Assembly (NCBI GenBank): GCA_010405405.1
Contig: MU004234.1
Location: 106,993 to 170,992, forward strand
Direction of reading: 5' to 3'
DNA length: 64,000 nucleotides
DNA from: Microthyrium microscopicum
Lineage: Eukaryota
Each line of letters begins with the position of its first letter. Position 1 is the first letter of the stretch. The notes below the pieces were generated by a model that did not search any database, was not told the DNA's origin, and saw only the letters and a list, made by a program, of their open reading frames with translations. Shown piece after piece: positions 54,170 to 63,670 of the stretch. A program made the position numbers and the translations under genes.

Positions 54170-55121
54170 TTACTTGTCATCACGATAATTGTGACTTGTA
54201 TTGTGGATTGAACCATAATTGTATCCTCCCTGGACACCAGAGTTGTTGTCGCCCGAGAAAGTGATGGTGTTGCCCGAGTTCCCTGGTATCTCCTGAAGTC
54301 TGTCAGTTTGAACTCAAGCAAGAACTGACAAGATACTGCCATTATCACCAACGCGCGCTCAAGGCTAGCCACGGGGACGACATTATGCTACGTTCCATCC
54401 ATTCAAAACGCTTTCATAGGAGACTTACCTTCGAGAAGGCAGCATATAAGCCCTGGTCTTGGTATTTAGAAATATGTTTCAGAATTGCGACAGCTTCGCT
54501 TCCACAAGCTGCAAGAGTCTTTGCATCACTTTCGCAGAGTTCAACTCGAGTGGGTGCCCGAGTTGCAAAGTACTCTTCTAGGGGGTCGAGAAGAGCATTG
54601 ATATCAAGAATGAGCTTTGCGAGGTTTTTCTCGTCGAACACTGCCCACTTGAACTTCTTGAACAATGAAGGTGAACCTGCAGCCTTTGCAGGCTGGATGG
54701 TAAGTCTCCTATGATTAATCAGTTAGTAAATAACACAAGCATTGACGCTCGTGAAGAATTTGTTGAGCACTTACTGCACGGCTTGACAAAGTGGTGTCTC
54801 GGGACGATCCAACACATCCTCTGGCTTATTCACCTTGTTCACGAAACCAGTTCTTTCAAAGAGTTCTCCAATTTCGGTCATAATCTTCTTGGCAACCAGA
54901 ACGTTCTCAGCCCCCAGTTTGCTTTCGAGTGTTGCTTGATCATCGGTATCAATATTGATTGACTTGCCCCATCGAGAGAGACGTAGTTGTGCGATTTGGA
55001 GCTTGAGATGGTTGATCTCGGAAGACTTTTCGAATCCGCGACCGAGTTGGATCCATTCGAACCATTCAATGGCATCGTTGAAGACACCCAAAGCACCGAG
55101 TGCTATGCCTGCTGCGTCCAT
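54170..55121 (-). CDS. HeLo/HELL-domain cell-death effector B with C-terminal PP amyloid motif (HELLP-like)
   Basis: MDAAGIALGALGVFNDAIEWFEWIQLGRGF; LKLQIAQLRLSRWG; KWAVFDEK. The third exon (54292-54170) encodes EIPGNSGNTITFSGDNNSGVQGGYNYGSIHNTSHNYRDDK*, in a reading frame the ORF track does not show. Confidence 0.9.
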
Positions 55122-55736
55122 GACGATGATGCAGTGGCGTTGACGTTTGTTTCCTTTCTGGAACTTGAAGTTGATGACTGGACGAAATATCGAGTTGATT
55201 ATGCTTGCAACCAATAACCAAAGTTGGAACAACAAGTCGACAGTATCGGTGAATAAGGAAGAGATCAACCGACTAAGCCTTTTTATAAGCTTGATCCTGG
55301 AAGCACCTGCAATTGAACACTCAAATTGCCTGCTGGAGGACATTCTGACCTTTAGGTTGTGATCTCCATCATGAGATGTTTAAATGCGGCTCATGAGCTG
55401 ACTCTTGATAGATGACCAGTCATCAATGGATTTGAAAAAATGAATTGTTGCTCCAATGTCAGACGACCAAATGATTCGGATCAAGCTCCGGCATCAATCG
55501 CTACAGAGAATGACAAAATTTTCTGAGCAACTCCTTCTGCACTGGACAGCCTGGAAATGGCAAGATAACACTCTCGTAGTTGAATACAACACACATCACG
55601 CTATGCAAATTGAGATCAAAAGAGCAAGGAAATAATTGAATTGGATGCTTTCAGACCAGGGTCTTCACTGGATCAACATGCATCAAATACGATTCCCAAC
55701 AAAAAGGACATATCCATGATATCCATTCCTCAGGAT

Positions 55737-59972: not shown

Positions 59973-60963
59973 TTCTGTATTGAAGACACAGCAGAGGATA
60001 TTTCATTGAAAGGTTCATGTGGTCGCAGTGCGCTTTCTGATCTTCTAGGCATAAGATGGCACTAGGGATATGATTTGGTTTATTTGATAGCTCATCAACT
60101 TGTCCGAGTCTCAGCATTCTTTTCCCTTAAGAGTATCGTACGCTACTTGGTTCAACATAATGGCTTCATCATGTAGCATCGCTAGTCCTTCAATTTGCTC
60201 ATGCCAGGTCTTCTTATCGGGTATAGCCTGCTCCCAGATACCATGAGGAGTTTCAATATACTCTTTTTCTCGTTAGATGGTGATGGAAAAAGCCAGTCGA
60301 TCTACGCCGCTAACAGTGAAGTCAATGAAATGGCTTGTCAGATCATTCTCAAAGCTTTGGAGAGAACAGTGATTTTATGCGTTGGCCCCATGTCAGGCTC
60401 CTATCGTTTTGAACAAGCTTTGAATGGACACATTGTAATGAGTGGCAATATATTGTTAGCCGTCACGGTAACGAGTGGAATATATGAAGCAAGCCTAGTA
60501 CAATCAAGATTGTGCTCGACTTTCGTACACCGTCGGGGGGCATTGAAGCGGCCGATAATGGGTTAAGCCCGGTGGTTGACATCACGATTATTGAGAATAA
60601 AGTATTCGATTATACTATCATATTTGACAGATCAAAGAAAGAGGATTCTGAGATTATGTACGACCTCTTGCGACAATAGCAAATAGTTTTTGACATATGA
60701 AGATCAACACGCGGGTTGAAGTTTGTACTTATGCCAAATCCTGACACCTAATTGCTTTATAGTCTTCGAGAATTAACCTGGTTGCATGTGCAATGGTTCT
60801 TTCTCTCTCGGAAGCTATGAAACCTACTGGCTGACATCGCTCAATACTCTTTTCACTGCGCTTTGCGACAACCAAGATTGACTTCGATTTGCTTGTCTTC
60901 AAATCTAACACGAAACACAAGCAAGCCTATATCTCTATTCGTTTCAGCAGGATAGTTATCATC

Positions 60964-63670
60964 GTGGCTGAGCCTCTTACTTTTGACGATGAACTGGTTT
61001 CTGCTATGCGCAAGATGATTTTTGGCGATAACCCAGGTGTTCGGGCAACGCCACAGGACAGCGGAAGCAATAGGCACTACCAATACGCATCGTTCACCGG
61101 AGCTTCGAATAGAGGTATCCAAATAGGTTACAATGTAGGGAACATCGAAAGTCATATTCACCACGCAGCAGGTAAGAGATGGATGGGGGCTTATAATATT
61201 GCAGTCTCGGGTTAACCCAAGAACAGAACATCCGGAGATAACGCCAGAACCTGATATTTTTATCAACTTTGAGCGAGATGTTGACTTTGTTGGACGTTCG
61301 GAGATACTGAAGAATTTGGAAGAGAAATGCGTAGTTCCTGGTTCATGGACAGTGCTGGCTGGCCTTGGTGGTGTTGGGTAAACACTACGCCTATCTCTAT
61401 GAATTATCGCACGATAAGCTTACACCCGTTAGAGAGTCTCGAATTGCCGTAGAGCACTGTTACAGGCTCCACGCATCGACACCGGACACTTGGATTTCTG
61501 GATTCGCGCAAGTAACGAAGCTCGTTATGACCAAAGCCTGAGAGACATCGCGGAAAAGCTAAAACTATCTGGTCGACAAGACCCAATAGCCAACTTTGCC
61601 AAACTATTTCACGATTGGTTGCAAAACAACAATCGAAAATGGTTTGTCGTTCTCAATAACGCAGATGATGCAGGATTCCTTATCAACTCCAGCCAGTCTA
61701 GTCAGAGCTCGCAACCAGGTGCCGGCGATAGTGCTTCTATTCCCCCAAACTCTAAGCCTCTCCGCGAATATCTCCCTCGTCCTCAGCATGGCTCATACCT
61801 CGCCACAACCAGAAGTAAAAGGGCTGCCCGGCAGCTGACGAAGGTCAGAAAGATCATTCCTGTAGACTTGATGGATGAGGAAGAAGCTTGTCGACTACTG
61901 CAGACCAGGTTAGAAGATGAGCAGCCAAAGATCGATTTGCTCAACCTTATGAGGGCTCTCGAATGTATACCACTTGCTATCGTCATGGCTGGCGCCTACA
62001 TCTCGAAAAGGGCGCCACGTTGTTCAGCGCGCCAGTTTCTCAATACATTTGAGAAAAACGATAAACAAAAAGTGAGTCTGCTCTCTAATGATGGCGGGTA
62101 TCAAGCAAGGGACTACCAAGCGCAAAACTGCGTTTTCACAACATGGAATATAACAATGCTGCACATATTCAATACAAACAAGCCAGCTGCTAACTTGTTC
62201 TACGCTACAAGCTTCTTCGATCGACAAGGCATTCCCGACGATCTTCTGAGAAGTGTTTTCATGTGGATACAATCCAGCAAGAAAGCGATTGACTCAAGTG
62301 AACAAGAGGCCGAAGAGAACAGCGATAACAATGCTTTAGCATACTTTCAACGACCTGAATCCAGTTCTAGCATGGACGAAGCATTTGAAAACGCCTTCCA
62401 GATGCTCAGAGACTATTGGCTCGTGACCGTGACTGCCGATCCCAGTGTATTTGAAGTACATCGACTGATACAGGTTGGTGCAAGACAACTTAACCTGACA
62501 AGCAATGACTTCTACGGTAACCTCCTGGTAGGTTTGGCGGTTATTTATTTCGATTTTGAAGATGGAAAACCAGTATCTGGAAGCCACAGTCTGGGTCAAG
62601 ATATTGAGAGCAAGAAATGGAGGGTCTACTTTCCACACTTCAAAGCCTTAATCAGCTCGGAGCCACAGCTTGACGAATATAAGGGAGTGTGGCTGCTGAT
62701 TCTTAGCAATACAGCAGAAGCAGCAGTTTTCGCGGGAAAGTATTCCGAGGCAGAGAGCATCGCGAGTGTCCTTTTGCAAAGATGTTCACCAGATACATGG
62801 AAAGCAACCAGTCCTACCACACTAATTTGGAAGCGAGAGACCTTTATGCGAATCAATGTCGTTCTTGGAAAGTCGTACGCAGCTCGACTCATGTATTCAC
62901 AATGTGAAATCTTTCTGGACCGCTTTCTACCAACAATGTTCAAAGAGTTCAATATCTGGTCGAACGAAATTGAACCGTCACCGTCCGAGTTACCGAATCT
63001 TTTCCTTTACGTAGACATACTGTGGACTTTAGCCATGGTGAAGCTATGCCAGAACAAACTGCAACAAGGTCAGAAATGGCTGGATCGTGCATATGAGACG
63101 ATTTGTTACTTCACAATGCAACACCCATCGGTGGAAGACCGATTCAAGCGCAGGACATTAGATATAACCGAAGCTCTTATCATCAATGTGATAAGAATAA
63201 CGGCGAATCGAGAGATGATACGAAATGAAAAGCTTGCTGAGCTTCCGGAAGCGGTGGAAGAAGTTAGAAATCTCGCATCACAGAACTATGACAGAAGTGT
63301 TGCTTTATTGGGAGCCGATGATGTCCGGACGACTCGAAGACGTTGGAATTGTCTCTTCTTGGCAGGCACATCGGAAGCGCATGAGAGCTTAGTGAAAGAG
63401 GGTCAAGGGGCTCGTGAGAAACTTGAGGCTTCATTAGGCTCTGATCACTCAGCAATCCCAGAAGCCCTGTGGTTTTTGGCAACTCTCTTGAAGCTGGTTG
63501 ACAAGCATGCTGAAGCGTTAGAAGTCATGGAGGAATGTGTGAGGCTGGGCGCTCAGATTCGAGGTTCAGACAATTGCCGGACGCAGGAGTGTGCGAGAAG
63601 GTTGTCGAACTGGAAGCAAAACATTCCAGGCGTGCCTGCAATTGGCTTATTCATGGCATCTTTTCCATAG
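60964..63670 (+). CDS. NLR 2: PP motif / NB-ARC / TPR paralog; degenerate P-loop and frameshift, possibly a pseudogene
   Basis: FTGASNRGIQIGYNVGNI; DFVGR; AGLGGVG|ESRIAVEHCY; same intron positions as NLR 1; VVLNNADD; FEVHRLI; TPR-like tail. The homologous start is GTG at 60964; the first ATG is at 61006. Confidence 0.85.

Follow-up and report, generated by a model that had tools for sequence, protein, structure and literature searches.

Results

Three HeLo genes and two NLR genes form a cluster with a shared PP motif

The 64,000-nucleotide stretch of Microthyrium microscopicum DNA analyzed here (contig MU004234.1; the window) contains five genes within 10.8 kb: the HeLo genes A, B, and C on the minus strand and two genes for NB-ARC/TPR NOD-like receptors (NLRs), NLR1 and NLR2, on the plus strand. 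Receptor and effector genes are adjacent, as in the known signalosomes that use the pseudo-palindromic (PP) amyloid motif, and C and NLR1 stand head-to-head with their starts 712 bp apart. A C2H2 zinc-finger gene (PF12756), which we take to be REI1-like, flanks the cluster on one side and a RanGTP-binding-family gene (PF05508), ending near 63944, on the other.

A first-pass annotation had described four peptides sharing a PP motif that resembles the RHIM (RIP homotypic interaction motif) found in RIPK1 and RIPK3, and all four translate exactly and in frame. In the spliced models, the motif is C-terminal in the HeLo proteins B and C, and NLR1 and NLR2 encode it in exon 1. When all six frames of the 64-kb stretch were scanned, NxGxQxGxN, the strict pattern, matched three times (NLR1, NLR2, and B) and the relaxed pattern Nx[GA]xQxGxN four times, with C added, while 150 order-2 Markov simulations gave means of 0.013 (strict) and 0.04 (relaxed) and a maximum of 1. 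The Pfam family Ses_B (PF17046; cut-off 23.2 bits) matched B (33.2 bits), NLR1 (26.7), and NLR2 (24.8), and there was no Ses_B match on C. The claim of a shared motif thus holds in its strict form for NLR1, NLR2, and B, but C carries NxA, is missing the conserved Phe as well as two conserved Gly residues, and falls in the bottom tenth of the effector profile; its motif scores above 3 of 30 effector motifs, that of B above 24 of 30. Gene A lacks the motif: where it would align there is a degenerate remnant and nothing more, and scoring the tail by its flanks alone gave −1.4 bits, the null reaching up to 7.8. Motif placement and Pfam matches support the proposed identity: judged from its sequence, the cluster is a PP/RHIM-like amyloid signaling locus.

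Features of the PP cluster and their positions in the window
Feature	Position	Strand	Details
HeLo gene A	52858..53720	−	~262-269 aa; exon 1, 53720-53320; acceptor uncertain
HeLo gene B	54170..55121	−	249 aa; exons 55121-54775, 54708-54429, 54292-54170; C-terminal PP
PP motif of B	54206..54259	−	core VQGG
Perfect inverted repeat, 16 bp	54414-54429 and 54699-54714		predicted pairing about 1.0; 16 bp reached in 1 of 300 simulations
HeLo gene C	55737..56590	−	265 aa; exons 56590-56190, 56133-55737
PP motif of C, degenerate	55776..55829	−	core IQAG
Spliced RNA antisense to A, B, and C	52647..57144	+	introns 54700-54756, 55356-55411, 56823-56879; no open reading frame over 115 aa
NLR1 (PP, NB-ARC, TPR)	57302..59972	+	exons 57302-57500, 57561-57708, 57758-59972; both introns spliced in RNA
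PP motif of NLR1	57422..57475	+	core VQVG
Premature TAG of NLR1	57762..57764	+	Ser position of Walker A, codon 118; product 117 aa
NLR2 (PP, NB-ARC, TPR), pseudogene-like	60964..63670	+	predicted exons 60964-61171, 61227-61377, 61433-63670
PP motif of NLR2	61093..61146	+	core IQIG

Both NLR genes carry lesions at Walker A

Canonical splicing of NLR1 intron 2 reads GLGGVGK and then TAG. The splice is seen in X5, a single run that we guessed to be RNA, that has spliced contigs and is available as contigs only, and whose strand can be read only from intron ends. The RNA joint 57707-57757 is exactly the splice that gives the TAG, with no other letters, which places the stop in frame. In NLR2, GTG occupies the position of the NLR1 ATG, and the first in-frame ATG after it, at 61006, still precedes the motif; Walker A is GES through a Lys-to-Glu change (61434-61436), and the frame changes between 61490 and 61496. 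A poor alternative acceptor 2 nucleotides downstream would reopen the long frame, without GKS. The first-pass annotation had treated both genes as working receptors. Neither has the intact Walker A and open frame of a functional NLR, and with a stop in Walker A in one and start loss, a Lys-to-Glu change, and a frameshift in the other, that view could not be upheld: NLR1 and NLR2 are probably not working receptors.

The receptor architecture itself is clear from relatives. A search found 401 related NLRs, and among the best 120 of these, identity is 35-48% and most have matches to PF00931, to TPR families, or to both, while on the single exons of the window genes the NB-ARC and TPR matches fall below the Pfam cut-off and DUF7779 is above it for NLR1 only. 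The Walker A loop is visible in 72 of the 120 listed relatives, and 67 of the 72 have GK[ST]. At related loci, the same intron lies inside Walker A, and GKS is found at 10 of 11 sites, in 8 cases with the Ser codon TCG, one base from TAG.

We considered several ways in which NLR1 could escape its stop. With the canonical donor, other acceptors lead to stops or to the wrong frame; noncanonical donors keep the frame only by deleting the Gly-Lys of Walker A, and the RNA uses the acceptor that gives the TAG. A-to-I editing of the TAG would yield Trp, not Ser, and the RNA-like run has no other letter there. The six bases 3′ of the TAG match, at all six positions, a readthrough-permissive context reported for yeast (PMC8087045, Table 2), a context inherited from ancestral Gln-Leu/Ile codons. 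Another PP receptor acting in trans was also sought: a Ses_B search of the genome returned three matches, none beyond those in the window, a search with the NLR1 motif returned two, and scanning the retrieved NB-ARC and HeLo loci for the pattern returned none. These searches are lower bounds, and some N termini may fall outside the retrieved loci.

Over 55755-64000, a DNA contig with a word depth of about 1030 agrees with the assembly with 0 differing letters and 0 gaps. The run behind it may be the source of the assembly; base-for-base agreement rules out an assembly error but does not represent a second strain. Two further runs, X6 and X7, match in short exact pieces at depth 2-4 and were set aside as evidence. 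Downstream of the lesions, there are no further stops in 735 codons of NLR1 and 724 of NLR2, which puts neutral divergence since the loss at under about 0.03, counting substitutions only, and suggests that the lesions are recent. They may be strain-level null alleles; strain-dependent NLR pseudogenes are reported in Podospora (PMC13449251). Repeat-induced point mutation (RIP) was rejected as their cause, as the changes are C to A, A to G, and an indel rather than C to T, and the local GC content is 42-48%.

The core tetrads do not pair receptors with effectors

Four-residue cores at the center of the motifs had been proposed to define separate NLR-effector channels. The RIPK1 and RIPK3 tetrads were given correctly (539-IQIG-542 and 458-VQVG-461; 10.64898/2026.02.19.706818), and NLR2 and NLR1 match them exactly. 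The RHIM tetrad (V/I)-Q-(V/I/L/C)-G accommodates both receptors and neither B nor C. The match is not specific to NLRs, however, for among 115 close HeLo effectors with a motif (117 examined), 9 have VQVG and 3 have IQIG. Over the 18 residues of the motif, NLR1 shares 11 with NLR2 and 11 with B, NLR2 shares 10 with B, and C shares 6 with either receptor, so that B is nearly equally close to both.

Other fungi gave the same picture. A metagenome scan with one HeLo-PP protein returned 16 loci, both partners being visible in 8 of them, for a total of 9 effector-NLR pairings; the loci are close relatives of each other, and two (L033 and L035) look like one locus. Neighboring partners had an identical core in none of the nine pairings, and their motifs shared 8-12 of 18 residues. 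Effectors with LQLG adjoin receptors with LQIG, LQVG, PQVG, or SQVG, and at locus L027 two NLRs (LQIG and LQVG) surround a single LQLG effector. The core tetrad is therefore not a partner code in these NLR-HeLo pairs. In published work, prions of the RIP1 and RIP3 RHIMs seed each other efficiently, and cross-seeding is also described between fungal PP regions with 36% identity, the motifs within known clusters being 32-48% identical (PMC7885112). Core position 1 is Val or Ile in all four window motifs and Leu or Phe in most relatives, which suggests that the window motifs belong to a single co-evolving channel.

The effector cores are unusual at position 3

As the first-pass annotation had noted, the effector cores VQGG and IQAG are divergent. 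Ala or Gly at core position 3 occurs in 0 of the 115 close HeLo-PP relatives, 0 of 13 NLR motifs beside HeLo genes, and 0 of 30 divergent effectors (149 examined, one being gene A; the Q and G of the core were required). When motifs were called in divergent proteins without regard to the core, noncanonical cores proved common: only 20 of the 46 effectors and 11 of the 38 NLRs had phi-Q-phi-G, some low-scoring calls probably being false. A single base separates the Gly codon of B (GGA), and likewise the Ala codon of C (GCA), from a Val codon.

Many NB-ARC/TPR relatives (P0003, P0004, P0020, P0021, and others) have a distinct PP subtype, FxxxNxG[FL]QAGxxxGxV, in another register than the HeLo-linked type. 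In this NLR subtype, xQAG is the commonest core, with Ala or Gly in 17 of 30 (8 of them from Cladosporium). We rejected the idea that FQAG and LQAG receptors make IQAG an ordinary core, given the different register and the lack of Ala or Gly in all 13 motifs of HeLo-neighboring NLRs.

A deep-mutagenesis preprint reports that changes at RIPK1 I541 and RIPK3 V460 strongly reduce nucleation (10.64898/2026.02.19.706818), so by analogy weak self-nucleation of B and C is plausible. HELLP, a known PP effector, does self-nucleate (62-97% by day 11; published Table 1), so weak nucleation is no general design. In the literature searched, we found no PP structure or PP mutational map, and a PDB sequence search with the motif region of NLR1 returned His-tag matches only, nothing meaningful. 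The tetrads VQVG, IQIG, VQGG, and IQAG in similar flanks offer a natural series for the role of core position 3, comparable to V460 and I541.

The HeLo genes probably stem from an old triplication and are overlaid by antisense RNA in one run

HeLo (PF14479; 93.9-95.9 bits in A and C) is the sole domain family that matches A, B, and C, which places them with HET-S-type executioners and not with HELLP, whose domain is HELL (HeLo-like); C matches HET-s N-terminal structures with an E-value of 3e-16. The three proteins are 24-32% identical to one another, all with open frames, and their best relatives are only about 30-36% identical. They form one clade (support 0.86 in a 152-row FastTree with long branches, where attraction is possible) and have a phase-2 intron at an aligned position, which together point to an old local triplication. 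The introns of B are predicted, none having been observed spliced in RNA, and a public model (P0135) puts the start of A exon 2 at 53245. The N-terminal helix is charged in C and is the least hydrophobic of 115 rows (one being gene A), with a best 17-residue Kyte-Doolittle mean of 0.44 against a median of 1.64, so that C lacks the hydrophobic membrane helix expected of an executioner; B (1.23) and A (1.25) are in the lowest eighth. None of the three has Pro at the aligned position of the HET-s H33P change. Two more HeLo-domain genes lie elsewhere in the genome (L004, G000:C2:3862110; L008, G000:C8:193248), with long C-terminal extensions and no PP motif. An AT-rich block (GC 15-22%) occupies positions 1-6000 of the window, 46 kb away from the cluster, a composition usual for RIP-degraded repeats.

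In X5, antisense RNA dominates over A, B, and C. Its contig is 4342 nucleotides long, its three introns are GT..AG on the plus strand, and it retains the predicted minus-strand introns of the HeLo genes. As contigs hide minor species, sense HeLo mRNAs may still exist. An additional GT..AG joint (57145-57233) connects the antisense RNA to NLR1 exon 1, with depths of 95.8 and 95; its short side of 29 letters falls below our 31-letter rule, and a contig spanning genes does not prove a single transcript. If it is one RNA, the NLR1 ATG lies at nucleotide 4397, after 97 ATGs and with no earlier open reading frame over 115 aa. The antisense RNA begins near the promoter side of the zinc-finger gene, and divergent transcription from that promoter would be its simplest source. 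A CT..AC joint at 63058-63110 (depth 5.5) reveals spliced RNA antisense to NLR2 as well, probably run-on from the RanGTP-binding-family gene. Missing X5 cover over NLR2 was not counted as a sign of silence.

Within B, the inverted repeat is predicted to pair the acceptor of intron 1 with the donor of intron 2 in the pre-mRNA, and one arm doubles as the donor of a plus-strand intron of the antisense RNA. Retention of B intron 1 stops the frame at once, and the modeled hairpin could block B splicing. Our searches turned up no paper describing null alleles or antisense control in PP/HeLo clusters, most subscription journals being outside their coverage.

Discussion

The results reported above show a PP cluster in which both receptor genes carry disabling lesions and the killer genes are covered by antisense RNA. 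In the published mechanism of the family, a ligand-driven NLR oligomer forms a PP amyloid nucleus, the effector PP is templated on it, and the exposed N-terminal helix brings about death (PMC7885112, PMC5485727). By extension from such systems, the ancestral M. microscopicum locus would have worked through ligand-induced oligomerization of an NB-ARC/TPR NLR, whose N-terminal PP motifs would nucleate amyloid; this fold would template the C-terminal PP of a HeLo protein, which would then expose its N-terminal helix and kill the fungal cell. One HeLo gene would have been triplicated and one NLR gene duplicated on the spot, all of them using one channel of the [VI]Q[VI]G type, in which both receptors would act mainly through B.

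We think it fairly likely that the locus is now a disarmed PP signalosome: a one-channel system with B as its main effector that recently lost both receptors. The Gly of B and the Ala of C would each have arisen from Val by a single-base change, fixed when selection relaxed or when it acted against self-killing, and they probably lower amyloid competence rather than encode partner specificity. With both receptors broken and antisense RNA over the killer genes, the differences between the peptides look like decay and not like a wiring code.

Several observations weigh against this interpretation. The motif of B outscores most effector motifs, and B may still work; A, B, and C have diverged far and yet remain open, so they were long under selection. 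NLR1 is still transcribed and spliced, its stop lies in a leaky context, and the alternative NLR2 acceptor would restore a long frame that still lacks GKS. The changes to Gly and Ala come from a single strain and cannot be dated, and all sequence sources may come from that strain. The RNA evidence is one run of contigs, in which minor species are hidden and the strand is given by intron ends.

The same observations could reflect an attenuated but live system, close to the second proposal of the first-pass annotation, in which B and C would be poor nucleators by themselves and would need an NLR seed to convert, while readthrough would supply small amounts of full-length NLR1 or intact alleles would exist in other strains. 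The absence of Gly and Ala at position 3 from close effectors, the effect of V460 and I541 changes on RHIM nucleation, the permissive TAG context, and the intact frames downstream of the lesions all fit this idea, as does the RIP1 RHIM in Podospora, with low spontaneous but 100% induced conversion (published Table 1). We nevertheless regard it as unlikely, as the permissive context is an inheritance from the ancestral codons, known PP effectors self-nucleate and most relatives are aliphatic at position 3, so that weak cores are no design rule, and loss of a core side chain should impair templated stacking too. Readthrough inserts Gln, Tyr, or Lys and would not restore the Ser/Thr of Walker A. 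Separate channels set by the core tetrads we consider very improbable. There are two NLRs and two PP effectors, position 1 pairs Val in NLR1 and B and Ile in NLR2 and C, and barriers to seeding can arise from side chains where the fold is shared, as in the HRAM families, but the motif of B is about as close to one receptor as to the other, and so is that of C, neighboring cores differ in all nine pairings, RHIMs with IQIG and VQVG cross-seed, two L027 receptors surround one effector, and both window NLRs are broken. That the lesions are assembly or sequencing errors in an intact cluster is hardly credible. The NLR2 frame change does lie in a short T run and the DNA run may be the source of the assembly, but the deep DNA contig agrees throughout and the RNA-like run has no other letter over NLR1; for this strain, the error reading is largely refuted.

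It is also conceivable, if quite improbable, that the locus has been exapted as a prion or incompatibility system, in which the 117-aa NLR1 product or the dead-helix protein C is a free PP prion, the antisense RNA and hairpin silence the strain's own B, and fusion partners that express HeLo-PP proteins die. PNT1(1-31) alone is reported to form a prion and to activate HELLP, and such derived forms were posed as an open question (PMC7885112). The NLR1 stop falls just after the motif, its RNA is present and spliced, antisense RNA covers all three effectors, and the C helix is the least hydrophobic of its set. Measured against [Het-s], C offers a weak helix with a weak motif and the NLR1 fragment a good motif in a putative product. 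Against exaptation stand the degraded motif of C, the position of the NLR1 ATG deep in the RNA behind many upstream ATGs if the antisense RNA is its leader, the single allele seen, and divergent transcription from the neighboring housekeeping gene, which accounts for the antisense RNA without selection. In addition, early stops trigger mRNA decay, and a stop at codon 118 should do so. Less probable still is its most pointed version, a prion weapon, in which the nonsense allele frees the VQVG motif of NLR1 as a ligand-independent seed, the antisense unit and hairpin protect the carrier, and HeLo-PP fusion partners are killed. If true, it would be the first natural PP prion, with an RNA-level antidote, in a fungal amyloid pathway, and a free prion formed by the NLR1 fragment or by C would answer the question in PMC7885112 of whether PP can be exapted like [Het-s].

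Compared with pnt1-hellp of Podospora anserina and pnt1-hellp-sbp of Chaetomium globosum, the M. microscopicum cluster shares adjacent genes, an NB-ARC/TPR NLR with an N-terminal PP, and an effector with a single C-terminal PP, and there too one NLR may serve several effectors (PMC7885112; PMC5485727). It differs in that its effectors are of the HeLo and not the HELL type, it has no lipase, and it combines three effectors and two NLRs with Walker A lesions in both and antisense RNA over the effectors. One NLR with two effectors is already known; features local to this cluster are its three-plus-two layout, its lesions, and its antisense RNA. Both pore-forming and enzymatic effectors have been reported to carry PP (PMC9815663), and among Dothideomycetes the combination of HeLo with PP is very common. 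Dothideomycete loci of the P0122 family (L026-L041) share the domain order, head-to-head layout, Walker A intron, and motif register FxGxxNxG-phi-Q-phi-GxNxG, and L027 also has two NLRs, but each has one intron-less HeLo gene, aliphatic residues at position 3 in both partners, Leu or Phe at position 1 in most, and intact GKS. The nwd2/het-S system of P. anserina shares the HeLo domain and amyloid templating and gives, in [Het-s], a precedent for a prion variant with an inactive HeLo domain, but it uses two HRAM repeats and a NACHT/WD NLR where the window has a single PP and NB-ARC/TPR. RIPK1 and RIPK3 share the G-(V/I)-Q-(V/I)-G core with both window NLRs in other flanks and host proteins. PP and RHIM prions partly cross-seed (PMC7885112), while a common fold is not established in the literature consulted.

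Some relatives merit notice in their own right. L027 (1-5266), a metagenome locus in which a single HeLo-PP gene faces an NLR head-to-head and is accompanied by a 626-aa open reading frame and a second PP-bearing NLR, is a further multi-receptor PP cluster. At L037 (1-771), a HeLo-PP gene stands head-to-head with an NLR that by eye looks NACHT-type rather than NB-ARC-type and is preceded by a PP with the core PQVG. In P0130 (1061 aa), the HeLo domain is followed by two internal PP motifs, and P0160 has three overlapping PP-like repeats at its C terminus.

The general outcome is that the core tetrad is not a partner code in neighboring NLR-HeLo pairs. For M. microscopicum, the locus is a PP cluster larger than those studied so far, probably caught while switching off, in line with the rapid turnover known for NLRs in fungi.

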